In this document: positions 7,869 to 53,461 of the stretch, one piece after another
Numbering within the stretch: position 1 is the first letter of the stretch
Layout of the letters: each line of letters starts with the position of its first letter
Source of the DNA: an uncultured Candidatus Saccharibacteria bacterium
GTDB taxonomy: Bacteria; Patescibacteriota; Minisyncoccia; Phycocordibacterales; SBAW01
Assembly: GCA_964566795.1 (NCBI GenBank)
Contig: CAZMIU010000001.1
Coordinates: 333,091-397,090 of the forward strand
Direction: 5' to 3'
Length of the DNA: 64,000 bases
Notes under the pieces: generated by a model
Databases searched by the model: none
Seen by the model: the letters and a program-made list of their open reading frames with translations, nothing else
What the model was told of the DNA's origin: nothing
Translations under genes and position numbers: made by a program

Positions 7869-9188
<1,320 letters not shown>

Positions 9189-38460: not shown

Positions 38461-39246
38461 TTAATGGGACGTCTTGACAGCATGAGACTCACTGCCATGA
38501 GGCTCTTCAATTGCGATTTTTATAAATGCCAACGTAAGAATGGCGAATACGGCCGCCTGCAAAAGGCCGATAAATGCTTCGAATGCCATAAGTGGCACCG
38601 GCAAGAAATACGGCACGAAGAGCGTGACTATCATCAATAAAATCTCCCCGGCGAATATAGCGCCGAAGAGCCGAAACGAAAATGAAATAAGTCGGGCAAA
38701 GTTACCGATAATTTCCAGCAATCCAACCGCAAAGCCTATAAAGCCGTTCGAGAAATTAATGAATTTTGAACCGTATTTCCAGAGCCCCAGTGTAAGTATG
38801 CCGCTTAGTTCGATTACAAGAAATGAAATCATGGCAAGAGCCAGAGTCGTATTGAGGTCCGCATTTACAGGACGAAATAGCGGTGTGAGCGAGCTTTTAC
38901 CCTCACTCACATGTTCAAGACCTATCGTACCGAAAATGGGCAGGAAATTGAAAGTGTTAGCAATGAATATAAAAATAAATATGGTGACTATAAACGGAAA
39001 ATAGCGCAGAGCCAGCTGTCGACTGCCAAGAGTCTGCTCTATCAATCCAAGTACATACTCAAAAAACATTTCTACGGCGCTTTGGATTCTCCCTGGCACG
39101 ACCGACACTTTGCGGCCAATAATAAAAGCTACCAGTAGTATGCCCGCCATGACAATCCATGTAGTAAGGAGCGAATTGGTAACAGGAAAGCCCCAGATAT
39201 CAAAAATCTTCTCCGAGGCAAGGGCGATATGTAATCCTTCTTCCAT
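38461..39246 (-). CDS. atpB: F0F1 ATP synthase subunit a, an orphan copy.
   Basis: Conserved essential Arg in ARLISFSFRLFGAIFAGEILL, and C-terminal EAFIGLLQAAVFAILTLAFI. Five to six TM helices. Confidence 0.7.
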   Translation of the reverse strand: MEEGLHIALASEKIFDIWGFPVTNSLLTTWIVMAGILLVAFIIGRKVSVVPGRIQSAVEMFFEYVLGLIEQTLGSRQLALRYFPFIVTIFIFIFIANTFNFLPIFGTIGLEHVSEGKSSLTPLFRPVNADLNTTLALAMISFLVIELSGILTLGLWKYGSKFINFSNGFIGFAVGLLEIIGNFARLISFSFRLFGAIFAGEILLMIVTLFVPYFLPVPLMAFEAFIGLLQAAVFAILTLAFIKIAIEEPHGSESHAVKTSH

Positions 39247-39313
39247 TTAGGAGGTTAATTTAACATACTGAAAGGAATACTGAAACTCTAAATGTAGTGC
39301 ATTAAAACCGCAC

Positions 39314-39913
39314 TCATTGGGAATAGACTCCGACAAAAACCGCCGAAACGATAAAACGATCTTCTTTTGCACCTAGCGTGTTGCATGTTACCAGCTTTAG
39401 ATATGTACCATCTTGTGGCATGGAAATTGTATCTACGGTTGCGTTTGCAGTCTCGACCCCGGTCACGCGATAGCGATACTCACGAGTATCTGAGTAGACG
39501 TTGATAGTGTCGCCCTCTTCTAGCTCTTGGATATCATTAAACGCCTTGTAGGCTTGATTGCGTACGATTGGCAAAGAAGTCGAGTGCCCGAGTAAAACTA
39601 CGGTACCCTTAGTGCCTAACTGTGCAGACGTGGGATACCGTATTGCGCCTTTTAGCAGTGCCGCATTTAGCACATCGAGATCAGTGCTTGTGCGGTTTTC
39701 TACTGTCACATCAAGTTTTATCTTTGATGCAGTAACCCGTATTGGATCCTCAGGAATTACAGACGGGCCAGTTTCTTTAACAGACGGACTTTCTGGAATC
39801 GGAGTAACGAGAGTGGGTTCCGGTAAGGCGTCAACCGCACTGAGAAATATAAAAGTAAGCCCAAAGAGCGCCGTGAATGTAAATACGAAGGCAAAAAAAC
39901 GCTTTCCCATCAT
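39314..39913 (-). CDS. Sortase-family transpeptidase.
   Basis: Catalytic His in VVLLGHST, a Cys in the LVTCNT (TLxTC) motif, and a conserved Arg downstream. Confidence 0.75.
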   Translation of the reverse strand: MMGKRFFAFVFTFTALFGLTFIFLSAVDALPEPTLVTPIPESPSVKETGPSVIPEDPIRVTASKIKLDVTVENRTSTDLDVLNAALLKGAIRYPTSAQLGTKGTVVLLGHSTSLPIVRNQAYKAFNDIQELEEGDTINVYSDTREYRYRVTGVETANATVDTISMPQDGTYLKLVTCNTLGAKEDRFIVSAVFVGVYSQ

Positions 39914-40248
39914 AAGAGTATATTACACACCACTTGCAGGGTCTTGATAGCTCCCCTACTAACTCGTATTTGCTACTGCATGCTTTTTGTCAGAAACAGG
40001 TTCGTCTACCCAAGAGCCGTCAAGGATGTCCCATTGTGTACGAAAATGTCACCCGGCTTATGGGTCACTTTCTTGTATACCAGAAAACTGACGAGCAGTC
40101 CGACCAAAATCAAGCTGAGGATGATGTATTTGTAAGGCATGGTAATTTGTTAGCGGTATTTACCATATCGCGTTATGCCTCTTCCTTCGCGATCAGGATG
40201 CGTTCTTTCAGAGATAGTTAATTCCCCAACCAAACATAAGGTGACATC

Positions 40249-40452
40249 TTAACCGCGCTTGCTTGTCCACGCACGTACATGGGCAACGAGACCGAATATA
40301 ACCAATATCCACGCTATGACGACAGGGAAAAACGCATTACCGGCAAGATAGTCCTGCAGCAAGACGGCTATACCAAAGCCGAGCGCCGTATGGCTGGCAT
40401 TAGACAGGAGTATATGACGGCGGTCAAACTTCATCGCTTCTTTTATAGACAT
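40249..40452 (-). CDS. Small two-TM membrane protein (hypothetical).
   Basis: 67 aa, hydrophobic. Confidence 0.3.
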   Translation of the reverse strand: MSIKEAMKFDRRHILLSNASHTALGFGIAVLLQDYLAGNAFFPVVIAWILVIFGLVAHVRAWTSKRG

Positions 40453-40606
40453 ATAGTTTTATTCATTAATGGTTTGATAATACATCACTAAAATTGTAAC
40501 ATCCTCATTAACAGGGAGGCCTCGCCCCCTGTTCCGAAACTCGTGAATAAAGGCGGAAACCGGAGCGGGAAGGACGATTTCAAGTTTTCTTTGACGGCCA
40601 CTAACC

Positions 40607-41827
40607 TCAGTGCCCGCCTCCACTTTCTATTTTTCCGTCAAAAATCGTGGGGTCTGCCTCTCCCTCTACGCGCAAAAGTCCCCACGCGCCGCGGTCGAGT
40701 CGGGCAAGCGCATGGTCGACAAGCATATAATTTCCGGGGTAGTCGGCTTTGAACTCAACCACCGCGGCACCGCCGGCGGGAATGAGGGTCGTCTGTATGC
40801 TTCGCGCAGGAGGACTCACAATATCTCCCTCGCGATATACGCGGTCAAATATCTCCCCGATTACATGAAAGCTTGAAATGAGATTGACGCCGCCGTTTCC
40901 TACGTAGAGGCGGACGGTCTCCCCGACTTTGACATTCATGTTGTTCTGCAATGCTCCTGTTTTTCCGTTAAAGACTATGTATTGCGGCTTCCCGTCGAGC
41001 ATCGCTTGTGCGTCAAACAACTGCAGTCCCTTTCGACCCAATTCCCCGGATGTATAAAACTCTCCCTGCATCACGTAAAACTCTTTATCGACCGGAGGCA
41101 ACCCTTCTTTTGGCTCGATGAGAATGAGCCCATAGAGTCCGTGCGCCATATGACTCGGCACATTAGGATGAGCACAATGGTATACGTACAAGCCGGGATT
41201 AAGCGCTTTGAAACGGAATGTTTTTGATTCTCCTGGGGCGACGTTCGTCGCAGGTGCTCCGCCGCCTGGCCCATTAACCGCATGTAAATCAATGTTATGC
41301 ATATGGAGGCTCGTCTTGTCGTTATGAAGCGTCAATTCGACCGTGTCGCCCTCGCGAGCTCTCAAAAACGGCCCCGGCACGGTGCCGTTGAACGTCCAGT
41401 AGTTGAGAGTGACCCCGGGAGCAATTTCAGAGATGACTTCTTTTGTGGTAAGTTCCATTTTGACCGTCTGCGGTTCCGAGCGATTAATTGGCGGTGGAAT
41501 GTCCGCGGGATTTTTTGCTATGTCGGGAACTCGCTCGAAGGAACCGAAATTCCTGAAGAACTGAAGTACATTTTTGAAAGGAAGAACGGGGCCTTCGCTC
41601 GGGCCGAACGTTTTAAGAGAAAAAGGATACTGAAAAGCGTTTGGTATTCCGTTTGGAACGTAAAATGCAAGAGAAACCCCGACAAATATTGCCACAAGCG
41701 CCGCGGTAAGCTTCCACGAATGGAACTGACGGAGCACGAGAAAAATGAAAAGAGCCGCAAAAAAATACGCAATAGCAAGACCGAATGCCTGCACGATGTA
41801 TTGCCAAAGGTAAGAAAGTAGTTCCAT
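40607..41827 (-). CDS. nirK: Copper-containing nitrite reductase (NirK-type two-domain multicopper protein) with N-terminal TM helices.
   Basis: LHNDKTSLHMHNIDLHAVNGPGGG (T2Cu His) and YVYHCAHPNVPSHMAHGLYGLILIEP (T1Cu Cys/His/Met). An N-terminal 60-aa hydrophobic anchor. Confidence 0.8.
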   Translation of the reverse strand: MELLSYLWQYIVQAFGLAIAYFFAALFIFLVLRQFHSWKLTAALVAIFVGVSLAFYVPNGIPNAFQYPFSLKTFGPSEGPVLPFKNVLQFFRNFGSFERVPDIAKNPADIPPPINRSEPQTVKMELTTKEVISEIAPGVTLNYWTFNGTVPGPFLRAREGDTVELTLHNDKTSLHMHNIDLHAVNGPGGGAPATNVAPGESKTFRFKALNPGLYVYHCAHPNVPSHMAHGLYGLILIEPKEGLPPVDKEFYVMQGEFYTSGELGRKGLQLFDAQAMLDGKPQYIVFNGKTGALQNNMNVKVGETVRLYVGNGGVNLISSFHVIGEIFDRVYREGDIVSPPARSIQTTLIPAGGAAVVEFKADYPGNYMLVDHALARLDRGAWGLLRVEGEADPTIFDGKIESGGGH

Positions 41828-41842
41828 AGACTGATTAGATTA

Positions 41843-42420
41843 TCATAACAAATCTCCATTGGGACACCTAATCCTTTGGCAATCTTGGCGACCGTTTGCC
41901 ATGGCGCGCAGTGACGTTTCAAGAATTTCCTTTCCATGATTAACGATTATTGAGATATGTCCTTCGTTGGGATAGAACGTTACTTTTGCGCCGGTGAATT
42001 GTTTTATCAATTCTCGCATCTCCGCCTCTTTAACTTGATTATCAAGTGCGCCATGCCACACTTGTATTTTTGACGCATCGATATTCGAAATGTAAATCCC
42101 CAGGTACGTTGTCCTATGAGCATACCGTCATAGGCCGCACCTTTTGCGCCTTGGCGCACGCTTTCAGCGAGCGAAGCTACCATGATTTGGAGCGTATCGG
42201 AACCTTCCAATGCTTTTCTGTCCGGTTCTACCCAGCGGCTTGAGGCGCGTTCCAATAATCGCTTTGCTTTCTCCTCGGTGTTAAACGTATTTTTTGTCAT
42301 CGGAAGCATAATCCACGGCACCCATCGCGCGAGAAAAGAAACAAGTCGGGTTGTCCGCCCAACACCCGATACGACACCGCACCGCGTTATCGGGTGCGGG
42401 ATTTGATACATGCAAGCCAA
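41843..42420 (-). pseudogene. Disrupted alpha/beta-hydrolase C-terminal fragment. Two overlapping ORFs sit in different frames and the N-terminal nucleophile region is missing.
   Basis: ORFs 42007..42420 and 41843..42061 together encode ...AYDGMLIGQRTWGF...KVTFYPNEGHISI, the His region of the catalytic triad. There is no GxSxG. Confidence 0.4.
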
Positions 42421-42429
42421 CGAGCCATA

Positions 42430-42972
42430 TTACACAGCTCCCCGTCTCAGCCTCCACATTCCCCACCACGCTGCTGGTGCAAGTACTATCACACTCGCCA
42501 TACCTGGGAAGTAGCCATACGGTTCTGGAGTTAGGAGCGGAAGGAAAAAGTGTGCGAGTTCGGTAACGCCCATTGCTGTAAAGAAAGTCCAAGCCAAATA
42601 GTATCCAAAGGAATATTCGCGACTGACGAAATACGGGATCAGGAGCCATGCGGCAGCAAGCGTGTACAGCAGGATTATGAGAAAGCTCGCTTCCGGCACA
42701 GGAACTCCGGTTATCTCCGAAAGTCGCGGAAAGAAATCCATCTCCCGTTCCTCTATCTTGTGGAGTACAAAGAAAGAGAGTGTGAGGAAGTACGGAATCT
42801 TTATGGAAGCAAAAGAAGCCTTGGTTGGGATAAGGAGCCAAAGAATGAGTCCACCGAGAAATCCGAATACGAAGAGGAATGCGGGCAGTAGACCCAGCAT
42901 GACGTAGCCGAGCGCTACTACGGCAATAGTGAACATGACCGCAAAAGCCATTGTAGAAACACTTCTTTTCAT
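42430..42972 (-). CDS. HXXEE-domain membrane protein.
   Basis: LHKIEEREMDFF gives H-x-x-E-E within a multi-TM protein. Confidence 0.55.
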   Translation of the reverse strand: MKRSVSTMAFAVMFTIAVVALGYVMLGLLPAFLFVFGFLGGLILWLLIPTKASFASIKIPYFLTLSFFVLHKIEEREMDFFPRLSEITGVPVPEASFLIILLYTLAAAWLLIPYFVSREYSFGYYLAWTFFTAMGVTELAHFFLPLLTPEPYGYFPGMASVIVLAPAAWWGMWRLRRGAV

Positions 42973-43007
42973 GGGTATATCTTACACCTTGTCATAGGCA
43001 TTACCGA

Positions 43008-43065
43008 CGCGTCTCGGGCGCGATAACCTAGCACGAGTTGGTTGCGACTCCTGAACGAAGTTCGA
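43008..43065. repeat. Left att-like direct repeat: a 28-bp exact core plus a degenerate copy of the tRNA-Gln 3' end.
   Basis: gcgtctcgggcgcgataacctagcacga at 43008-43035 is identical to 48197-48224. The following 30 bp resemble the tRNA-Gln 3' part. Confidence 0.6.
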
Positions 43066-43119
43066 ACTATTGCAATGTCCGGAAACACCGTATTTAGCCG
43101 CGTAACGGTTACAGATTAA

Positions 43120-43518
43120 TTAACTGACCTTGATCTGAAAATTATACATCCCCATACCACATACTCCCTGCACCTTATCTCCCGATTTTGGAGTACCTAA
43201 ATCTATTTCCTCCTCACCGGTTGGTTGCAATATCTTCTGAAAACCAACAGAACGGACCACGAGCGACGCTGAGCAATCATATGTACCATCTGTCTTCACA
43301 ATCAATTTGGTAGGTACTCCGCCTTTAATTTCCGTGATGCGCGGAGAATAACCGCCCTTTGCAGTCACAGTCACATACTGCACACCGTCTCTAACCTCGA
43401 CATTCTGTGATTGCGCGACTTCGTCGCCTGAAGACGCCGATCTATCAGAAACAAAGTAGAGAGTACCTCCAATGAGGGCAATACTGAGGATAATGGATAT
43501 GACTGTGTTTTTTTGCAT
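43120..43518 (-). CDS. Membrane-anchored cupredoxin-like (Cupredoxin_1) protein.
   Basis: TM anchor, then a beta-rich domain with YDCSASL and GVCGMGM (Cys/Met copper-site-like). It is a paralogue-like match to the gene at 6953-7453. Confidence 0.5.
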   Translation of the reverse strand: MQKNTVISIILSIALIGGTLYFVSDRSASSGDEVAQSQNVEVRDGVQYVTVTAKGGYSPRITEIKGGVPTKLIVKTDGTYDCSASLVVRSVGFQKILQPTGEEEIDLGTPKSGDKVQGVCGMGMYNFQIKVS

Positions 43519-43534
43519 AGATTAACTAATAAGA

Positions 43535-44542
43535 TTATATGTTAAATAAAGGATCAATAATACCGAGCCCTGCAAGTCCTGCGAGGAGCGCGAAAGCTCC
43601 GAGGCCAATTACCAAAACACCTGCCGATTTGAAGAAAAGTGGCGCGTGTCTTGATTGTGCGAATGAGGCAGAGCCGAACGACAGAAGCGCGAGCATTGGT
43701 AGCGTGCCTAGGGCAAACGCTGTCATGATCAAGAACCCCGAGAGAAAGGAACCACTTGAAAGTGCCGCAACTTGCATCGCTTGAGTAAATCCGCACGGCA
43801 AGAAGAAAGTCCCAACACCGACCAAAAACGGCGCTATGGTCTTATGCTCCATCTTACGGAAGAAGCTAAAGACTCCAGAAGGTAGCGCAATCATATTTTT
43901 CTCAAAAATTCCTACCAGATTAAGCCCGAGTACAATCATCACCACCGATGCGATGATCCCGAGGATTGCGGTAGCGGTAAAACTGATACCAACTGCACTT
44001 CCGATGGCACCAAGCACACCGCCAAGCACAGCAAAACTGATTAGTCGGCCTCCGTGAAAGAGCATCATCGGCTTTACATCGCTTATCTTGTCCTGGGACA
44101 CCGTTGCAGAAAGCGAGAGGACAAGCCCTCCAACGACCGCAAGACAGCTCGAGACGGAAGCAATGAGACCGATGATAAAACTCGTAACTGGGGTTACTGT
44201 TCCTCCCAGGCCGAAATTCAGAATCCCTGACTTTTGGACAATGAAAAAGAGAGCCAGAAGTGCTAAGCCAATAGGCAAGGCTTGCCAAATGACGCCAGTA
44301 TCCTTTTTCTCCCTAGTTTTCTTCTCAACCGAAAGTGAATAGCCGTTGTGTTTTATCTTTTCGGTCAAAACCTCCGCGAGTTTTTGCTGACTGTCATCAA
44401 GACTTGTGTCAAAAGAAACTGTCTCTTGTTTTAGGTTGACGTACGCATTCTCAATACCCATATGTTCATTGAGAACGTCCTCAATGAGGATTTTACATGA
44501 AGCGCAGTGGATGCCAGAAACGTGAAATGTAAGTGTTTTCAT
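43535..44542 (-). CDS. HMA-domain fused to a multi-TM permease, TauE/SafE- or DsbD-like.
   Basis: N-terminal GIHCASCK (GMxCxxC metal-binding), then about 7 TM helices with FLPCGF. Confidence 0.55.
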   Translation of the reverse strand: MKTLTFHVSGIHCASCKILIEDVLNEHMGIENAYVNLKQETVSFDTSLDDSQQKLAEVLTEKIKHNGYSLSVEKKTREKKDTGVIWQALPIGLALLALFFIVQKSGILNFGLGGTVTPVTSFIIGLIASVSSCLAVVGGLVLSLSATVSQDKISDVKPMMLFHGGRLISFAVLGGVLGAIGSAVGISFTATAILGIIASVVMIVLGLNLVGIFEKNMIALPSGVFSFFRKMEHKTIAPFLVGVGTFFLPCGFTQAMQVAALSSGSFLSGFLIMTAFALGTLPMLALLSFGSASFAQSRHAPLFFKSAGVLVIGLGAFALLAGLAGLGIIDPLFNI

Positions 44543-44558
44543 AAACCGCTTTGCTGAG

Positions 44559-44780
44559 TTAGAGTGTCTCGCCGCGCTTTTCCAGCATCATGTGATGAAT
44601 TGTTGCGATTTGAAGCCAGGTTGCAATAAGGATAAGTATGCCGGCACAGAGTAGAGCGTCGATTTTAGTAACACCCAATACGGAATTGTCAGCTCCTCCG
44701 AAGACTGCGGCTAAAAATGAAATCACTCCAATCAAACCGACCGCAACACTGGCGACATGCATTACTTTTGATAGTTTCAT
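44559..44780 (-). CDS. Small two-TM membrane protein.
   Basis: 73 aa, hydrophobic. It sits inside the copper operon. Confidence 0.3.
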   Translation of the reverse strand: MKLSKVMHVASVAVGLIGVISFLAAVFGGADNSVLGVTKIDALLCAGILILIATWLQIATIHHMMLEKRGETL

Positions 44781-44810
44781 ATATTTTAGGTTTAATTATT
44801 TTTAATAAGT

Positions 44811-45425
44811 TTATTTGTACCACTGCACATACCACGACTGCATCTGCTGTATCTCCTCTGACTGTGAGGAAATGATATTTTTTGCAAGCTGTTGCATTTC
44901 AGGTCGATTGGTCCCTGATTGGAGCATATTCGCCATCATAATCGCCAGCTGATGATGAGGGATCATTTGTTCAATAAAAGCCTTATCGAAATCAGATGCG
45001 TTTTCCAGTGCAGTCATGTCTTCCTGTCCACCCATATGCATTCCGCCTTGCGACATCATGCCGCCACTCATCATGCCCGTGCTTACCTTTGGCACAGTGC
45101 TTCCGAACCAATCCTTATACCAGCCGTTCATATCTTGAATCTCTGCTGTCTGGGCTGCAATGATAGCTGTTGCTAAGGTTTTAATCTCTGGACGCTTTGC
45201 CTTTTGGAGCGCGAGGTTTGCCATAGCGATTGCACCGTCATGATGAGGAATCATTTGCTCGATGAAATGTTTGTCGATTGTGTTGGCAACTTGAGTGTTT
45301 CCATTTTCCCAATTCATCATTCCAGATCCTCCATATCGCATCATCGGAGTGAAGACTGAGACCAAGAGAATTCCAAGGACTATTCCTCCGATACCGTATA
45401 CTATTTTGTTGTTTTGATTGTTCAT
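44811..45425 (-). CDS. DUF305-domain protein associated with copper resistance.
   Basis: A tandem repeat of FIEQMIPHH...AI.MAN, with Met/Gly-rich linkers. Confidence 0.75.
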   Translation of the reverse strand: MNNQNNKIVYGIGGIVLGILLVSVFTPMMRYGGSGMMNWENGNTQVANTIDKHFIEQMIPHHDGAIAMANLALQKAKRPEIKTLATAIIAAQTAEIQDMNGWYKDWFGSTVPKVSTGMMSGGMMSQGGMHMGGQEDMTALENASDFDKAFIEQMIPHHQLAIMMANMLQSGTNRPEMQQLAKNIISSQSEEIQQMQSWYVQWYK

Positions 45426-45458
45426 ATATTTTTATTAAAATTAATTTGATAATTTTGC

Positions 45459-47753
45459 TTACAATCGTTTGGCTTTGATTCTAAGCGAATTCGACACTAC
45501 GGATACTGACGACATTGCCATAGCAAAACCTGCAAAGACAGGGTTCAAGAGCCACCCAAATACCGGATATAAAGCCCCAGCCGCAAGAGGAATGCCTACA
45601 ATATTGTAGATGAATGCCCAGAAGAGATTCTGCTTGATGCCGCGCATAGTGATCTTTGAAAGTTTGATCGCCTTTACAAGCTTCGAAATATCGCCACCAA
45701 GAAGGGTGATACCCGCCGATTCGATGGCAACATCGGTCCCGGTCCCCATGGCAATTCCCACATCTGCCTGTGCAAGTGCTGGTGCATCGTTTACGCCGTC
45801 ACCCGCCATGGCGACTATCTTGCCTTGCGACTGGAGTTCCTTAATTTTATTGAGCTTATCCTCTGGGAGTACGTGAGCCATCACCTCATCAATCCCCACG
45901 AGTGATGCGATGTACTTTGCCGCTCTTTCGTCATCTCCCGTGAGCATAACCACCTGTATGCCGAGCTTGTGAAGATTCTTTACGGCCTCGACTGACTCCG
46001 CTTTTATCTCATCAGCAACCATAACGAACCCGAGTACTTTTTCTCTAGTAGCGAGAATGACTGGGGTCTTTCCTTGCAAGGTAAATTCATTAAGTCTAGC
46101 GACATCAAATGGAAGTTTGAGATCGCTTACGAGCTTTACATTACCAACAAAATACTCATCGGTATCAATAACCCCGCGCAAACCCTTGCCTTGTATCCCC
46201 TCAAAATCGGAAACGCTCGACAATGGGATATTTTTCTCTTGTGCGTACTGTACAATCGCGTGCGCAATCGGATGCTCTGACTTCTTCTCAAGCGATGCGA
46301 GAATTGATACAAGGGCATCATCTTTTAAATCTGAGAGATTCTGTATATCGACTAGGGTGGGTTTGCCTTTAGTGATCGTTCCTGTTTTATCAACCACAAC
46401 CGTATTCACCTTGTGGAGTTTCTCAAGCGTAGCGGCATCTTTAATGAGAATACCTTCTTTGGCCCCCTTACCGACTCCTACGATAATTGCCGTCGGTGTT
46501 GCGAGTCCGAGCGCGCACGGGCACGCAATTACGAGAATTCCCACAAAGGATACAAGGCCGAATGACAAGGCCTGAGAGAACCCAAGATACTGCGACCCAA
46601 CGATAAGCCATGCTCCGAGAGTAAGAAAAGCGATTACGAGAACGATGGGCACAAATACCGCCGATATTTTATCCGCAAGTGCTTGTATGGGGGCACGACT
46701 TCCTTGAGCATCTTCAACCATCTTGATAATCTGGGCGAGGAGTGTTTCTGATCCAACTTTGGTGGCCTTGAATGTGAAGGAACCACTGGTATTGATTGTC
46801 CCGGACACGACATTGTCACCAAGCTTTTTCTGGGCTGGCATCGGCTCACCGGTAACCATAGATTCGTCGACGAAGGAACTTCCCTCGGTAATAACGCCAT
46901 CGACAGGGATCTTTGCTCCGGGCTTAACGATAATAAGATCGCCATGTTTAACATCGTTTACTGAAATTTCCAATTCTCTTCCTTCACGGATAACTAACGC
47001 CGTTTTGGCCTGAAGATTAAGAAGTTTCTCAATGGCATCACCTGTCTTTATCTTTGATCGCGCCTCGAGATATTTTCCAAGCGTAATAAATGTAATGACT
47101 ACGATTGTCACGTCGTAGTACTGGTAGTCAACGTTTATAAATGGACGAAGAACATCCTCAAAAGCACTGACTGCAAAACTGTATAAAAAGGCTGCAACCG
47201 TGCCGATGCCGATAAGCGTATCCATGTTCGCCTTGCCATAGCGGAGGAATCTATAAAAACCGAGAAGATAGGGTTTGCCAACGACAAACAAAATGTATGT
47301 GGCAAGTATTGGAAGCAGGTGATGAAAAAATTCTTTGAGCGTATAGCTCATTGCGGGAGCGATACTGTATTCAGCGAGTATGTCCCAGCCCATGACAAAG
47401 GCGGCGAAAACGGCGATGGGAATAGCTGATAGCACTTTTATTCGCATATCCGCTACTTCCGCTAGCTTTTCTTTCTTGGACTGGTTGAGACCCAGGTGTG
47501 ACGCGTGTTCACTTGGAGACATCCCCATTTCTTCGGCACTAGTCGGAACTTCTAGGGAATATCCGAGTGGTTCAATATGCTTGGAAAGGTCATGAGGATT
47601 TGTTTTTGATGGATCAAAAGAAACCTTTGCTTTTTCTGTACCATAATTAACTTCCGCGGAATGTACGCCCTCCACCTTCTTAAAAGTCTTCTCGATTACC
47701 GAGGAGCACGAGGCACAATGCATTCCTTTGACTCTGTATGTTTGTGTATGCAT
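45459..47753 (-). CDS. copA: Copper-translocating P1B-type ATPase.
   Basis: N-terminal HMA domain ([13 protein letters not shown]), CPC in [28 protein letters not shown]. 764 aa. Confidence 0.9.
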
Positions 47754-47754
47754 A

Positions 47755-48030
47755 TTATTTCCTCTTAAGCTTATACACCTTAATGATCTCCGCCTTTGCT
47801 TTAGCGGTCTGTCCAGTTTTCATCTGATGGTGGACGCAGTGATCAAGATGGTTTTCAAGAAGCAAATCCTCGACGTTAGATAGCCCTTGCTTCACGGCGG
47901 ATGTCTGAGTAATCACATCTATGCAATAGGTATCATTTTCAACCATCTTTTGAAGACCTCGAACTTGTCCCTCAAGCAATTTGAGGCGACGAACAACCTT
48001 TGCCTTATTTTTATCGTCCATGTACTCCAT
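47755..48030 (-). CDS. csoR: CsoR/RcnR-family metal-sensing repressor.
   Basis: [36 protein letters not shown]...[10 protein letters not shown] carries the C-H-C copper-ligand signature. Confidence 0.8.
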
Positions 48031-48034
48031 ATGA

Positions 48035-48064
48035 ACCACTATACCCCCTAGGGGGTATAGTGGT
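48035..48064. promoter_or_regulatory. 30-bp perfect palindrome ACCACTATACCCCCTAGGGGGTATAGTGGT, a putative CsoR operator.
   Basis: Exact inverted repeat with a C5/G5 core, like known CsoR operators. It abuts the csoR start. Confidence 0.6.
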
Positions 48065-48106
48065 CAAGTATATATCTGAGTGAAATAATAAACGTCAAGC
48101 TTAAAC

Positions 48107-48136
48107 AGAAAGACCGCCCTTTCGAGCGGTCTTTCT
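48107..48136 (-). terminator. Hairpin terminator downstream of tRNA-Gln.
   Basis: AGAAAGACCGC-N8-GCGGTCTTTCT, with a T-rich tail on the minus strand. Confidence 0.45.
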
Positions 48137-48196
48137 GTCTGAATACTGCTCTCAGCAGGTATGCCTTTTCTGAATAGTGACTCGGAGATTATCTAT

Positions 48197-48226
48197 GCGT
48201 CTCGGGCGCGATAACCTAGCACGACT
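48197..48226. repeat. Right att-like direct repeat abutting the tRNA-Gln 3' end.
   Basis: The 28-bp core is identical to 43008-43035. Confidence 0.6.
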
Positions 48227-48301
48227 TGGCTGCGGGACTAGGACTCGAACCTAGATAACAACATTCAGAGTGTTGCGTCCTACCATTAGACGATCCCGCA
48301 A
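48227..48301 (-). tRNA. tRNA-Gln(CTG).
   Basis: Hand-folded: acceptor TGCGGGA/TCCCGCA; anticodon stem CAACA/TGTTG with loop CTCTGAA (anticodon CUG); T-arm CTAGG-TTCGAGT-CCTAG. The discriminator and CCA are encoded. Confidence 0.85.
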
Positions 48302-48652
48302 TTACTTCTTTTTTCTGTCCTCGAAATGGGCCTTCCGGTGACAGTTTGCGCATAATACCACACACTTCTGTATCTCGTGAAGCATGCGCTTTTTACCGTA
48401 CCCCCACCCGCTTATGTTGCCTAAACTAAACTCTTTTGTTGCACCATCCTTGTGATGAAAATCTAAGCAAGCAGGATGAGTTTCGCTGCACCGAGAACAG
48501 GACAGATTGGACTTGTATTCATCGAGCCAAATCCGCATCTCGCTCCTGCGAGCCCTAACCCGCGCATACGTTGCAGCTTTATTATTTAAGTAAAACTCCT
48601 TGTTCCACTTTTTTAAATACTCCTTTTGCCGGTTAGGGTCGCGATAGGGCAT
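48302..48652 (-). CDS. HNH endonuclease.
   Basis: CSRCSE...CLDFHHKDG...LCANCHRKAH is an HNH motif with zinc-binding Cys pairs. The stop codon directly abuts the tRNA-Gln 5' end. Confidence 0.7.
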   Translation of the reverse strand: MPYRDPNRQKEYLKKWNKEFYLNNKAATYARVRARRSEMRIWLDEYKSNLSCSRCSETHPACLDFHHKDGATKEFSLGNISGWGYGKKRMLHEIQKCVVLCANCHRKAHFEDRKKK

Positions 48653-48699
48653 CCCATAAGTATACTAGGTTCTGAAATATAAGAATAGCTCAAAACTTT

Positions 48700-50337
48700 C
48701 TAAATCGAGCGTTCTCCTGCAGCCTTAACAAACGCCATAAACAGCGGGTGCGGATTAAGCGGGCGCGAGAGGAACTCGGGGTGGAACTGGGTCCCAAGCA
48801 TAAAAGGGTGCTCCGTAGTGGCAAGCTCGGCAATCTCCATAAGATTGTGCTCGGGGTTGATGCCGCTAAATATCAGCCCCGCGCTTTCTAGCTTGCCCAC
48901 ATACTCCGGGTTAACCTCGTAGCGGTGGCGGTGGCGCTCGCTCACCTCAGACTCCCCATATGCAGCGCGTGCGATAGTGCCGTCTTTAAGTGCGCAGACA
49001 TAGGCGCCCAGGCGCATCGTGCCACCGTAGTCGCTCTTGATAAGTTTGTCTTTTTGGTCGGGCATCACGTCTATCACGACATGCGGCGCGTCTTTGTTAA
49101 TCTCTGCGGTGTTGGCACCCGCAAGCCCCGCCTTGTTGCGCGCATACTCAATACACAAGAGCTGCATGCCATAGCACAACCCAAAGTACGGTATTTTGTT
49201 CTCGCGGGCATACTGTACCGCGGCGATAATGCCCTCTACACCTCTTGTGCCAAACCCGCCCGGCACCAGTATCCCATGGTAGCCCGAGAGCTCTTTAAGC
49301 TTAGTTGGGTCCTTCTCGTAATCTTCCGAGTCAAGGTAGCTGAGCTCGATTTTAGCCTGGTTGTAGTAGCCGGCGGTCTTTATAGCCTCCAGGACCGAGA
49401 TGTAGGAGTCTGCCAGCACGTAGTCGCCTGTCTCAAAGTACTTGCCCACCACCGCAATCTTAAGCGTCTGTGTGGTGTTTTGTGCCTTCTCTACAAATGC
49501 CTTCCACTCCAAAAGGTCGGTGGGGCGGCGCTCAAGCCCCAGCACATCGCACAAGATGTCACCCATGCCATCCTTCTCATAGTTAAGGGGCACATCATAA
49601 ATGCTCTTTACATCCGGCGCGGAGATTACGCGCGAGGCCGGTATATTGCAAAAAGTCGCTATCTTTTCCTTGCGCTTACCATCAAGCGGCACGCTGGCGC
49701 GCGCCAGTATGACATCGGCCTGCACGCCCGTGGAGTTGAGCTCGCGGTTAGCATGCTGGGTGGGTTTGGTCTTCATCTCGCCGATGTTGCCAGGTATGGG
49801 TACATAGGACAGGAGCACCACCGCGACATCCTGCGGATGCATCTGCCGCAGCATGCGTGCCGCCTCAATAAAGAGGATGTTCTCATACTCGCCCACTGTG
49901 CCGCCCACCTCGATAATGCACACGTCTGCCTGGGCTTGCGTCTGTGCCTCCTTAATGCGGCGTATCACCTCCAAGGGTACATCGGGCACCACCTGCACGT
50001 TGCGGCCCTTGTACTCCAGGTTGCGCTCGCGGCGTATTACCTCCTGGTACACGCGGCCGGTTGTCATGTAGTTGACACTGGGGAGCGTCTCGTCCAAAAA
50101 GCGCTCGTAGTTGCCCATGTCCTGGTCGGTCTCGTAACCGTCCTGCATCACAAACACCTCGCCGTGCTCGGTCGGGTTCATGGTGCCGGCGTCCACGTTT
50201 ATATACGGGTCAATCTTGAGCGCCGTTACCTTGTACCCCTTAGATTTTAAAATCCGCCCGATGGCGGATGAAGCGACTCCTTTCCCTATCCCGGACATTA
50301 CACCGCCCACGACAAAGATGTATTTTGGAGCCGCCAT
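48700..50337 (-). CDS. pyrG: CTP synthase.
   Basis: KYIFVVGGVMSGIGKG... N-terminal synthetase domain, and C-terminal glutamine amidotransferase GLCYGMQL...HPEF. Confidence 0.95.
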   Translation of the reverse strand: MAAPKYIFVVGGVMSGIGKGVASSAIGRILKSKGYKVTALKIDPYINVDAGTMNPTEHGEVFVMQDGYETDQDMGNYERFLDETLPSVNYMTTGRVYQEVIRRERNLEYKGRNVQVVPDVPLEVIRRIKEAQTQAQADVCIIEVGGTVGEYENILFIEAARMLRQMHPQDVAVVLLSYVPIPGNIGEMKTKPTQHANRELNSTGVQADVILARASVPLDGKRKEKIATFCNIPASRVISAPDVKSIYDVPLNYEKDGMGDILCDVLGLERRPTDLLEWKAFVEKAQNTTQTLKIAVVGKYFETGDYVLADSYISVLEAIKTAGYYNQAKIELSYLDSEDYEKDPTKLKELSGYHGILVPGGFGTRGVEGIIAAVQYARENKIPYFGLCYGMQLLCIEYARNKAGLAGANTAEINKDAPHVVIDVMPDQKDKLIKSDYGGTMRLGAYVCALKDGTIARAAYGESEVSERHRHRYEVNPEYVGKLESAGLIFSGINPEHNLMEIAELATTEHPFMLGTQFHPEFLSRPLNPHPLFMAFVKAAGERSI

Positions 50338-50348
50338 TGATACTACAT

Positions 50349-51278
50349 TTATATCTTAAGATACCTGCGCACCGCAAGGAAGCTGGCTATGGCACCCAAG
50401 AGGACGCCCGTGCCGACAATAACCCCGAAGAACATGAGGAAGTGCGAGAGGTAGTAGGTAAAGACGTTTACTCCGCCAAAGAAGGAGGCCGTAGACGCCC
50501 CGAGCCACCAGGTAAGCGGGTAAAACAGCAACAGCGTGATAACGCCGGCAACCAGGCCATAGAGCATGCCCTCTATCATGAAGGGCGCCCTGATAAAGAA
50601 GCTGCCCGCACCCACAAGCCTCATGACCTGTATCTCCTCGCGCGATGAGTATATGGCCAAACGCAGCGTGTTAAACGATATGGCGATAGTCGTGAGTATG
50701 AGTATCACGATAACAATAAGGCCCAGGCGCTGAGCCGAGTTGGTGATGCTCTGGAGCCTGTCGAGCGCCACGCGGTACTTGGCGTCATAAAAGCTGATCT
50801 TGTCTATCGAGGTTGCCGTGCCGTCCGCGCTGTCGGCGCTCTGCGCAAACTCTGCCACCGCCTCGTACTGTGATATGTCGCGGGCGCGCACCTGCAAAGA
50901 CGCCTCGAGCGGGTTTTGGCCCAGCTCCTCAAGCGCCTGGAGCGCCAACTGGTCGTCTTTGTAGCGCTCCCTAAACTCCGCAAGCGCCTCGTCGCGCGAT
51001 ACGTAACGCACCTCCACAACCTCCGGCCTGGCCTCGAGTGCCGACTTAAGGCTCAGTATCCTGTCCTCGGGCGTCGTGGTCAAAAAGTATATGCTCACAT
51101 CCACCTTATTCTTCAGCTCGGCGATAGTGAAGTTGAGCATCACACCCGCAAAAATAGTCATACCCACGACAAAGAGGGTCACAGTCATCACCAGGATGGA
51201 CGCAAAGGACACAAATGCATTGCGCCAAAAGTCCAGGAAGCCTGCGCGGAATATACGTTTGATGGTGACAAGATTCAT
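50349..51278 (-). CDS. ftsX: Cell division permease FtsX.
   Basis: N-terminal TM, a periplasmic domain, and three C-terminal TM helices. It lies immediately downstream of ftsE. Confidence 0.8.
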   Translation of the reverse strand: MNLVTIKRIFRAGFLDFWRNAFVSFASILVMTVTLFVVGMTIFAGVMLNFTIAELKNKVDVSIYFLTTTPEDRILSLKSALEARPEVVEVRYVSRDEALAEFRERYKDDQLALQALEELGQNPLEASLQVRARDISQYEAVAEFAQSADSADGTATSIDKISFYDAKYRVALDRLQSITNSAQRLGLIVIVILILTTIAISFNTLRLAIYSSREEIQVMRLVGAGSFFIRAPFMIEGMLYGLVAGVITLLLFYPLTWWLGASTASFFGGVNVFTYYLSHFLMFFGVIVGTGVLLGAIASFLAVRRYLKI

Positions 51279-51281
51279 ATT

Positions 51282-51962
51282 TTAGAGAATGTATTTACCC
51301 TCGCGGTCGTCGCGGATAACTTTGCCGCGGTCCATGGTAATGACCCGCTTTTTGAGCGAGTCTATCACGCCCTTGTTGTGGGTGGTCAGTATGATCGTGG
51401 TGCCCAAGTCGTTTATTTTTTTTAAAATCTGCACCACCTCAAAGGTGTTAACCGGGTCGAGGTTGCCGGTGGGCTCGTCGGCCACAATAACGTCGGGCTG
51501 GTTAACTATTGCGCGCGCAATTGCCACCCGCTGCTGCTCGCCGCCCGAGAGCTCGTCCGGAAAGTTGTTCATCTTGTCGCCCAGGTCTACAAGCTCGAGC
51601 ACGTGCGGCACGTCTGAGCGGATGTCTGCCTCGGAGCGGCCTGCGGCCTCCATGGCAAAGGCAATATTCTCGTACGCGGTTTTGTTGGGCAGGAGCCTAA
51701 AGTCCTGGAACACGGTGCCTATTTTGCGGCGCATCTCGCCCATGCGGTGCAGGGGCAGGTCGTGGATATTTATAGACTCAAAAAATACAGAGCCGGTGGA
51801 GGGCCGCTCCTCGGCGAGGAGCATTTTAACCAGGGTGGTCTTGCCGGCGCCGGAGTGGCCAACTATCGAGATAAACTCGCCGGGCTCGACGCTGAAGGAC
51901 ACATCCTCCAGGGCAACGGAGTTATCTGCGTACACTTTAGATACGCGATCGTAGTAAATCAT
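51282..51962 (-). CDS. ftsE: Cell division ATP-binding protein FtsE.
   Basis: [34 protein letters not shown]. Confidence 0.9.
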
Positions 51963-52068
51963 AGGAATGCTGTAGCACCTGCGTCGCTCGCAATCGAAAG
52001 TAAACTTTCGTTGTCTCGCTTTCCTCGGTGATAGATCATAGCAACCTATGTATTTTACCCCCTAATTT

Positions 52069-52929
52069 TTATTTCGCCAAAAAGGGCTCTATAGCACCGT
52101 CTAGCACACCCTCGGCGTCATGCACCTCTACCCCTGTGCGGTGGTCCTTGACGAGCTTGTACGGATGCAGCACATAGGAGCGTATCTGGCTGCCCCACTC
52201 GATCTTGCCCGAGGCCACCGAGAGCTCGCTTATCTTTTCCTTGCGCTCCTGCTCCATCAAATGCTTAAGCTTGGCCACGACAATAGCCAGTGCCTTTTCT
52301 TTATTTGCGCCTTGAGTGCGCTCGCCGTCTACATGCGCCGATATGCCGGTTGGCGTGTGCACCACACGCACCGCTGTCTCGCGCTTGTTTACGTTCTGCC
52401 CACCAGGACCGCCCGAGCGCGCCACGGTTATCTCCAGCTCCTTTTCATCGAGCTCGATATGCCCGACCTTCTCCAGTACGGGCAGTACCTCTACCAGCAC
52501 AAACGATGTCTGGCGCTTTTGGTTGGCATTAAACGGCGACTGCCGCACCAAGCGGTGCACGCCATACTCATTCCTAAGCAATCCGTACACGCCCTTGCCC
52601 TCAATCTCAAAGCTCGCATTGCGGTAGCCGCCGTGGTCGTTCTCATTGCGGTGCAGCTCGCGCATATCCCATCCGCGTGCCTCAACAAACTTGCGGTACA
52701 TCTGCACAAGCATCTGGGCAAAGTCCTCGGCGTCGTCGCCGCCCGCACCGGCGACAACCGACAGTATCGCCCCGCCGCGGTCATAGGCAGAGCCGCCCTC
52801 GGCTTCTGCCTTAAGGTCCTGGAGCTCTTTTATCAGAGCCTGCGCATCCTGCGGGTCGCGCCAAAAGTCCGGCGCTATCATGGCAGCCTCCAGCTCCCTG
52901 ATACGGATGTCTCGCGCTTCTTTGTCCAT
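52069..52929 (-). CDS. prfB: Peptide chain release factor 2, with no room for a programmed frameshift.
   Basis: SPF motif (RQSPFNANQ) and GGQ ([11 protein letters not shown]). An alternative start at 52881 (MIAPDFW) has a good GGAGG RBS. The ORF start at 52929 directly abuts tRNA-Thr. Confidence 0.85.
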
Positions 52930-52930
52930 C

Positions 52931-53006
52931 TGGAGCCGGAGGTCGGGATCGAACCGACGACCTATCCCTTACGAAGGGATTGCTCTACCGACTGAGCTAC
53001 TCCGGC
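52931..53006 (-). tRNA. tRNA-Thr(CGT).
   Basis: GCCGGAGTAGCTCAGTCGGTAGAGCA...; anticodon stem ATCCC/GGGAT with loop TTCGTAA (anticodon CGU); T-arm GTCGG-TTCGATC-CCGAC; CCA encoded. Confidence 0.85.
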
Positions 53007-53020
53007 GTAAGGAAAAATTA

Positions 53021-53461
53021 TCACACAAACAGCTTAGCAGCAATTGCTCTTTTACTTTGTGAGCGATGCTGACGGCCATTGCCCTTATTCAAGGCTGCAT
53101 AGGTTGGACTCAATGAGTCACAGTTGGGACAAATAAGCCTTAAATTTGCTTCTGTATTATTTTGCCAATTGCCGTCTATATGATCTGCCACAAGCGGTAC
53201 GCGCCCTGTTTTTGGATTTATCTGTGCCCACCCACACAAGCAGCACTTGTTTCCAAATTTTTCCCTTAAATATTTCTTAATCGGGTTGGTCACAATACCA
53301 GTAACCCGCAGGCCGTTCTCACGGCCCTCCTTCCATCTTTCAATGTAGACCTTGTACTGGTATTTCCCCTGGCAAATATTGCTGCAATATTTGTAACCAG
53401 ATCTAGCCGGCTCCCTGCCACACGCCAAACAATTGGGTCTAGATTTCTTGGGCATCGGCAT
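53021..53461 (-). CDS. HNH endonuclease with zinc-finger Cys pairs.
   Basis: CLACG...CCLCGW...ADHIDGNWQNN...LICPNCD. It lies 14 bp from tRNA-Thr(CGT). Confidence 0.65.
   Translation of the reverse strand: MPMPKKSRPNCLACGREPARSGYKYCSNICQGKYQYKVYIERWKEGRENGLRVTGIVTNPIKKYLREKFGNKCCLCGWAQINPKTGRVPLVADHIDGNWQNNTEANLRLICPNCDSLSPTYAALNKGNGRQHRSQSKRAIAAKLFV

Follow-up and report, generated by a model that had tools for sequence, protein, structure and literature searches.

What does a perfect palindrome of 30 bp do at the very start of the gene for a copper-sensing repressor? The question arises for a stretch of 64,000 nucleotides (hereafter the window) of contig CAZMIU010000001.1, which derives from an uncultured Candidatus Saccharibacteria bacterium and in which the palindrome stands directly ahead of csoR, the first gene of a cluster of copper genes. 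Our answer, which rests on sequence comparison, is that the palindrome very probably constitutes the operator of the adjacent CsoR protein, within the promoter of the copper-export operon to which csoR itself belongs. To our knowledge, almost nothing has been learned from experiment about transcription control in Patescibacteria (candidate phyla radiation), and our search of the literature found no paper linking CsoR to Patescibacteria.

The palindrome within the csoR promoter

Read on the plus strand, positions 48035-48064 spell ACCACTATACCCCCTAGGGGGTATAGTGGT, two arms of 15 nt (48035-48049 and 48050-48064) that are 100% complementary with no spacer between them; direct reading thus confirms the exact inverted repeat described in the initial annotation. 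Its length is beyond chance: in 200 first-order Markov versions of the window, the arms of perfect zero-spacer palindromes reached at most 12 nt and never 15. As a caveat, a second perfect 30-bp palindrome is found at 2335-2364, hence the length as such is not unique here. The central 20 nt, TATACCCCCTAGGGGGTATA, hold a dyad of the form TAC-CCCCTAGGGG-GTA (48042-48057). This core occurs only once in the window even when 3 mismatches are tolerated, with 0.01 copies expected. No further CsoR box was detected in the window with either TACCC-N2-9-GGGTA or the 20-mer at 3 mismatches, for example before the multicopper oxidase gene at 41827.

All relevant genes lie on the minus strand, where the order of elements is tRNA-Gln, a terminator-like hairpin, the -35 hexamer, an 18-nt spacer, the -10 hexamer, 7 nt and the csoR ATG. 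A promoter scan identified TTGACC, the 18-nt spacer and TATAGT as a site that overlaps the palindrome and matches the consensus at 10 of 12 bases, a compact predicted promoter of the sigma-70 type. The palindrome runs from the last three bases of the -35, which are its outermost bases, through the spacer and the -10, whose first four bases (TATA) belong to the CsoR box, and ends 4 nt short of the ATG, which agrees with the initial annotation, where the palindrome lies within 5 bp of the ATG. The operator therefore fills the -35/-10 spacer, which is more than a mere overlap with the promoter. Because nucleotide similarity between the window and its relatives begins at 48058-48070, that is, at the -35, the whole control region amounts to about 37 bp ahead of the csoR ATG. 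The overlap with the promoter proposed in the initial annotation consequently stands, refined as to strand, the filled spacer and the four bases supplied to the -10, and also as to extent, the conserved operator comprising only about 18-20 bp.

The start codon itself had two candidates. A GTG at 48039, inside the palindrome, opens the longest open reading frame (ORF) in the program-made list; it was rejected because it overlaps the -10 and because the ATG is where the homologues begin. The N-terminus MEYMDD in the window corresponds to MKYMDD in the relatives, which fixes the start at the ATG.

Further evidence comes from related genomes. A scan restricted to one genome per species, with 3 kb of flanking sequence covered per locus, yielded 80 loci with CsoR homologues of 62-97% identity, nearly all from metagenome-assembled genomes of Patescibacteria/Paceibacteria. 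TACCC(N2-9)GGGTA is present upstream of csoR in every one of these 80 loci; 78 were matched directly by the pattern, and in two others (L069 and L070) the boxes are situated further upstream, ahead of N-terminally extended CsoR ORFs. Box and csoR thus occur together in 81 of 81 loci. When the 53 distinct N10 sites are aligned without gaps, ATACCC and GGGTAT are invariant, and 13 columns are invariant in all; the TAC/GTA spacing among the relatives is N9 or N10. The promoter is conserved along with the box. To its left, the bases of the -35 recur in most of the 81 sites (T 80, T 75, G 74, A 68, C 66), and to its right, a TAnnnT flanks or overlaps it (T1 81, A2 80, T6 80), with a spacer of 16-18 nt in 79 sites. 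Of the 73 loci that extend far enough, 70 have a P-type ATPase with the DKTGT motif downstream of csoR and on its strand. Hence, the box sits in the promoter of csoR and copper efflux genes, and 80 relatives share this layout.

The adjacent gene had been annotated as csoR, and its product bears this out. The closest solved structures are the copper-sensing CsoRs 4M1P, 4ADZ and 2HH7, and C36, H61 and C65 align with the x-Cys-His-Cys fingerprint of all three. With CsoR of Mycobacterium tuberculosis (2HH7), the alignment is free of gaps and the numbering is the same for Y35, C36, H61, C65 and E81. From the CsoR literature, we take C36, H61 and C65 to be the Cu(I) ligands and, from work of the Giedroc laboratory, Y35 and E81 to be second-shell allosteric residues. 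The YCID and HxxxC motifs are retained in 78 of 79 CsoR homologues. Among NCBIfam models, the best match is the copper-sensing RicR, far above FrmR and RcnR, yet under the curated cut-off.

Comparison with known systems leads to the same interpretation. The consensus of the streptomycete type-2 CsoR operator is ATATACCCCTNAGGGGTATAT, and its TAC/GTA dyad is indispensable for binding (Tan et al., PMC3902906). By isothermal titration calorimetry (ITC), CsoR of Streptomyces lividans binds TATACCCCCTAGGGGTAAG (copZA2), GTACCCCCTAGGGGTATAC (copZA1) and ATACCCCTGGTGGGTATAT (csoR, csoR-4375), with two CsoR tetramers per duplex (PMC3902906). The window core fits both the consensus and these bound operators, in keeping with the CsoR operator suspected in the initial annotation: it shares the half-sites ATACCCC and GGGGTAT, the TAC/GTA dyad and the G/C tracts around a short variable centre, and is essentially one G apart from the copZA2 site, the extra G being in the window. 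As in S. lividans, the site lies upstream of csoR and copper-ATPase genes, and the protein has the same Cys-His-Cys ligands as well as a Gln (Q42) equivalent to S. lividans Q81. The window palindrome differs in being perfect and in extending to 30 bp.

Two rhizobial systems resemble the arrangement of the promoter. In the first, RACE (rapid amplification of cDNA ends) placed the csoR transcription start of Bradyrhizobium liaoningense on the A of the ATG, a CsoR box, TATACCCCTACCGGGTATA, lies over the -10, and csoR-cueA is copper-inducible and autoregulated from a bidirectional promoter between divergent genes (PMC5057107). The CsoR box overlaps the -10 in the window too, and the leaderless csoR, mapped there, is predicted here. 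In contrast, csoR and copA of the window point the same way within one operon, and neither a convincing -35 nor a gene is found on the opposite strand. A divergent plus-strand promoter arising from the symmetry of the palindrome was rejected on these grounds: the mirrored -35 (ATGAAC/TGAACC) matches at 3 of 6 bases, and no gene precedes the hairpin at 48105. In Mesorhizobium, NreA, a member of the CsoR/RcnR family, uses a dyad operator in the -35/-10 spacer of a leaderless nreAXY operon with a control region of 39 bp (PMC12724321). There, too, the operator fills the spacer and the repressor gene comes first, within a control region of about 39 bp as against 37 bp here; however, NreA senses nickel, its operator is of type 1 with a single G7 tract, TATCCtctcgggggGGATA, and the efflux genes are others.

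The window protein shares its residue numbering with the CsoR of M. tuberculosis. The cso operon of that species (csoR-Rv0968-ctpV) is said to be autoregulated, with csoR first and a copper P-type ATPase at the end, and both this operon and copZA of Bacillus subtilis reportedly have a GC-rich pseudopalindrome that overlaps the promoter. In M. tuberculosis, a longer operator carries the dyad in inverted form (GTA...TAC; PMC3902906).

Predicted transcription start, proposed mechanism and alternative readings

The initial annotation had also proposed a leaderless mRNA or one with a very short leader, and the geometry of the start is in agreement: in the window, TATAGT is followed by the 7 nt GGTTCAT and then the ATG, within the approximately 6-8 nt expected of a leaderless mRNA, and upstream of the csoR ATG a Shine-Dalgarno sequence is neither present nor has room. 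Among the 81 sites, the first in-frame ATG comes 6-8 nt after the -10 in 64, and a Shine-Dalgarno-like tetramer intervenes in only 3. Because of these two regularities, the csoR mRNA is probably leaderless, and we consider it likely that transcription starts in a strictly leaderless manner. Starts of this type are common in the window: TAnnnT ends 5-8 nt before the first ATG in 13 of 63 long ORFs, compared with 9 of 352 internal ATGs (2.6%), and a Shine-Dalgarno-like tetramer is present for only 7 of the 63. Leaderless-type starts are seen, for example, at orf180 (42972), a sortase gene (39913) and a 116-aa ORF (48652).

By analogy with characterised CsoRs, from which we infer DNA binding, the response to Cu(I) and the transcription start, the switch could work as follows. 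Without copper, apo-CsoR tetramers would occupy the TAC-N10-GTA dyad and exclude RNA polymerase from the -35 and -10. Cu(I) bound at C36, H61 and C65 would release CsoR, and the transcript would then start on the A of the csoR ATG or no more than about 2 nt away. This leaderless mRNA would encode CsoR, CopA, the DUF305 protein, a 73-aa protein, the HMA-DsbD protein and the cupredoxin, and the operon would thus be autoregulated.

Some observations weigh against this interpretation. The dyad spacing of the window is N10, where Streptomyces sites typically have N9. Neither the 18-nt spacer nor TATAGT is optimal, good as both are, and in three loci (L037, L055 and L056) the ATG lies farther from the -10. 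In addition, a weaker promoter-like site lies 30 bp upstream (TTGACG-17 nt-ATATAT, 48098-48070), and its use would place the palindrome in the 5' leader. The last point concerns the protein: the fourth position of the RLXR motif is Leu and not Arg (R15-L16-K17-L18, in RRLKLLEGQ), while the first Arg is kept. The Arg that corresponds to this fourth position in S. lividans is R57, and its Ala mutant gave no ITC signal, binding being abolished (PMC3902906). Leu or Ile occupies the position in 72 of 79 relatives, and Thr does so in M. tuberculosis CsoR; the RLXR motif is therefore not universal in the CsoR family. An additional Arg directly precedes the motif in the window (csoR residues 14-18, RRLKL).

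One rival explanation is transcription from the upstream site (TTGACG at 48098-48093, 17 nt, ATATAT at 48075-48070). The palindrome would then span about +1 to +30 of a leader, where CsoR might act as a roadblock and the RNA might form a 5' hairpin abutting the ATG. Both hexamers are visible in the sequence, the single-stranded palindrome folds stably (-13.7 kcal/mol as DNA, z = -3.7), and its outer arms are complementary in a subset of the relatives. Nevertheless, we regard this explanation as unlikely: ATATAT departs from the conserved A2/T6 pattern, the scan did not call it, the site falls outside the region shared with the relatives, and it is the TTGACA/TAnnnT hexamers around the box that are conserved in 81 of 81 sites. 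Moreover, such a leader would have no Shine-Dalgarno sequence and would carry a hairpin that ends 4 nt before the ATG.

Very unlikely, in our estimation, is a mainly structural role of the palindrome, be it as a terminator or attenuator of read-through from tRNA-Gln or as a DNA cruciform. A perfect 15-bp stem is suggestive of structure, and so are the excess of paired flanking bases and the compensatory changes relative to locus L001 that are reported below. Yet the stem is followed by TCATATGG and no T-run, no intrinsic terminator was called across 47600-48700, and a separate terminator-like hairpin already exists at 48105-48138. The latter has a 13-bp stem and probably insulates the csoR promoter from tRNA read-through; hairpins homologous to it occur in L028 and L032, and analogous tRNA-terminator-promoter layouts at other loci. 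An Rfam search over the palindrome gave only noise-level matches (E above 0.5). In addition, the inner 13-14 positions are invariant in sequence and not just paired, which argues for base-specific recognition by a protein, and among the outer 8 pairs no more than 43% of cells are complementary.

The box could in principle serve another metalloregulator, either an activator of the MerR/CueR type or a repressor of the CopY type. A dyad within the -35/-10 spacer is indeed also typical of MerR-family operators; these, however, need a spacer of 19-20 nt, compared with 18 nt here and 16-18 nt in the relatives. The sequence matches the CsoR box and not the CopY box (TACAnnTGTA), it accompanies csoR throughout, and no member of the MerR or CopY families is found among the six genes of the cassette. 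We consider such a regulator scarcely credible. The least probable explanation, by which the palindrome arose by chance or has no regulatory role (a restriction site cluster or the terminal repeat of a mobile element, for instance), can point to a CCTAGG within the palindrome and to the mobile look of the cassette, but it is effectively refuted by the conservation data, given a length far beyond chance, a fixed position relative to csoR in 80 genomes and cassette repeat boundaries that lie elsewhere.

The palindrome, read as the CsoR operator, represents a well-characterised kind of metal-responsive operator in a new phylum, seen here in an uncultured, ultra-small member of the Patescibacteria; the surprise is low and the annotation value moderate. 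Operator type, position and leaderless csoR all have experimental precedent (the latter two in rhizobia), and hence no current concept is changed. What the locus offers is a putative conserved example, over 80 genomes, of a TTGACA/TATAAT-type promoter, a textbook CsoR operator and the leaderless translation of a stress operon, useful for annotation and, if the prediction holds, as a small switch that copper induces. All three features are within reach of tests in a heterologous host, for which 40 bp of DNA and a single protein of 91 aa would suffice.

The copper cassette and its tRNA-linked setting

Features of the locus are compiled in Table 1. The gene list of the initial annotation, csoR-copA-DUF305-HMA-cupredoxin, is right apart from an extra ORF of 73 aa between the DUF305 and HMA genes. 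The genes are closely packed: the copA ATG lies 1 nt past the csoR stop, with its Shine-Dalgarno sequence AAGAGGAAA inside the 3' end of csoR, and from copA through the cupredoxin gene the remaining intergenic gaps measure 16-33 nt.

Table 1. Positions of the control elements, genes and repeats at the csoR locus, in window coordinates
Feature	Position	Strand	Evidence or remark
30-bp palindrome ACCACTATACCCCCTAGGGGGTATAGTGGT	48035..48064	none	direct reading and simulation
CsoR-box core TATACCCCCTAGGGGGTATA, 20 nt	48040..48059	none	conserved in relatives; fits published operators
-35 hexamer TTGACC	48062..48067	minus	promoter scan; TTGACA-like hexamer kept in relatives
-10 hexamer TATAGT	48038..48043	minus	promoter scan; conserved in relatives
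csoR ATG	48028..48030	minus	7 nt past -10, no Shine-Dalgarno; transcription predicted to start no more than 2 nt from A48030
csoR, 91 aa, Cu(I)-sensing CsoR-family repressor	47755..48030	minus	PF02583, E=1e-24
copA, copper-translocating P1B-type ATPase with N-terminal HMA domain	45459..47753	minus	TIGR01511, 603.7 bits (cut-off 397); Pfam
DUF305 protein	44811..45425	minus	PF03713, E=1e-46
Hydrophobic ORF of 73 aa, unannotated, no family match	44559..44780	minus	ORF list, Pfam
HMA domain fused to DsbD_2 membrane domain	43535..44542	minus	PF00403 and PF13386
Cupredoxin_1-domain protein, last gene of the tight cluster	43120..43518	minus	PF13473, 31.2 bits (cut-off 27)
Terminator-like hairpin, 13-bp stem	48105..48138	none	between tRNA-Gln and csoR promoter
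tRNA-Gln (CTG)	48227..48300	minus	directly upstream of the cassette, same strand
Direct-repeat copy A	48188..48234	none	last 8 nt of tRNA-Gln and 39 nt downstream
Direct-repeat copy B	43000..43046	none	73 nt past the cupredoxin gene

Two 47-nt direct repeats, 89% identical with an identical core of 28 nt and present in only two copies in the window, bracket the hairpin, the promoter with its operator and the six copper genes over 5.19 kb. One of them includes the 3' end of tRNA-Gln, and between the two, none of the six genes has an integrase or recombinase domain, the 73-aa ORF being without a family match. This suggests that the copper cassette is a small integrase-less islet inserted at the 3' end of a tRNA gene, a reading that fits the presence of promoter, operator and repressor on the cassette itself. 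The G+C content of the copper genes and their neighbouring region (38500-48500) is 0.42-0.50, compared with 0.55-0.57 in the pyrG-ftsX-ftsE-prfB block (49000-53000).

The relatives show a similar proximity. In 15 of 80 related loci (L012, L014, L015, L019, L023, L026, L028, L031, L032, L056, L058, L060, L061, L063 and L074), the box is preceded by a tRNA gene on the same strand whose end is 37-551 nt away, and between the two a terminator hairpin usually comes before the promoter. The tRNAs are of nine identities (Arg, Asn, Thr, Gln, Ile, Lys, Asp, His and Leu). Such adjacency is far more frequent than chance would give, which suggests that the cassette has been inserted at tRNA genes repeatedly. 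The 23-mer of the direct repeat has no exact match in the 80 genome loci. A metagenome scan with the repeat core recovered the same organism in two Hainich groundwater contigs (L081 and L084) and, in L083, a relative with an identical palindrome beside tRNA-Gln(TTG); all three contigs originate from the Hainich wells H43 and H51. In L083 (1-930), the 169 nt from the end of tRNA-Gln(TTG) to the box are nearly identical to the window, the region overall is 89.6% identical, and the pattern is mosaic.

Several further observations concern tRNA genes. On L082, an unrelated metagenome contig of 12.8 kb, the repeat core GTGCTAGGTTATCGCGCCCGAGACGC follows a 3' fragment of tRNA-Trp, about 150 nt past an intact tRNA-Trp (8799-8860, 9009-9080). 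In L031 (~2420-2960), a duplicated 3' fragment of tRNA-Gln, CAAGTCCGGCAGC, lies between tRNA-Gln and the csoR promoter, and is followed by a small ORF beginning MSMYFLYILECADKSLYIGSTNNLERRL, GIY-YIG-like in appearance, which makes another insertion at the same tRNA-proximal spot. In the window, two Cys/His-rich minus-strand ORFs with CxxC...HH...CxxCH-type motifs, HNH-nuclease-like, abut tRNA genes: one of 116 aa (48302-48652), without a Pfam match, next to tRNA-Gln, and one of 146 aa (53021-53461) next to tRNA-Thr.

Outer arms of the palindrome

Since conservation of the operator is limited to about 18-20 bp, the outermost 5 bp on either side (ACCAC/GTGGT) represent, judging from the alignment, a lineage-specific extension. 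They reach into the discriminator and the 3' end of the -35. The idea that outer arms are a general requirement was rejected, the low pairing of the outer 8 positions on each side (the 43% given above, from 53 sites) marking them as a feature of a subset. Within this subset, the pairing exceeds expectation: at least 5 extra complementary flanking bases were counted in 9 of 77 distinct sites, where 0.75 are expected, and the maximum in 2000 column-preserving shuffles was 4, in a control that ignores relatedness between loci. The complementary flanks vary from site to site (ACCAC, ACTAG, CCGAG, ACAAG, ACAC, CAAC and CAAG), and loci with such varying yet complementary arms include L001, L006, L007, L012, L020, L021, L026 and L036, in addition to the window (48035-48039/48060-48064). 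Between the window and L001, whose CsoRs are 97% identical, there are two fully compensatory double changes.

A wider proposal would combine the arms with the setting of the cassette: in the sub-lineage of the window, the palindromy of the operator might be actively maintained beyond the bases read by CsoR, and the copper unit might travel without an integrase, as a self-contained cassette made up of a terminator, the promoter with its operator, the repressor and the pump, at tRNA 3' ends across Patescibacteria. We put this forward tentatively and regard it as rather doubtful. If it is true, one option is that the two CsoR tetramers require symmetry of shape over a footprint of about 30 bp; flanking bases raised the affinity of S. 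lividans CsoR approximately 1.5-fold (PMC3902906). The other option is of our own making: template-switch mutation at quasipalindromes may re-symmetrise the flanks of a long G5/C5 palindrome, with promoter bases dragged along, and such hairpin-templated mutation may be the cause of the flank symmetry.

Other palindromes occur at the far end of the window. The one at 2335-2364, AAAAGCCCCGCGCCATGGCGCGGGGCTTTT, has the appearance of a bidirectional terminator, which it probably is. A palindrome of 24 bp, CCCCGCCATCTTAAGATGGCGGGG, is located at 1345-1368, and one of 16 bp, GTGTTTTGCAAAACAC, which looks operator-like, is present in 3 copies within 1.6 kb (120-135, 493-508 and 1628-1645).

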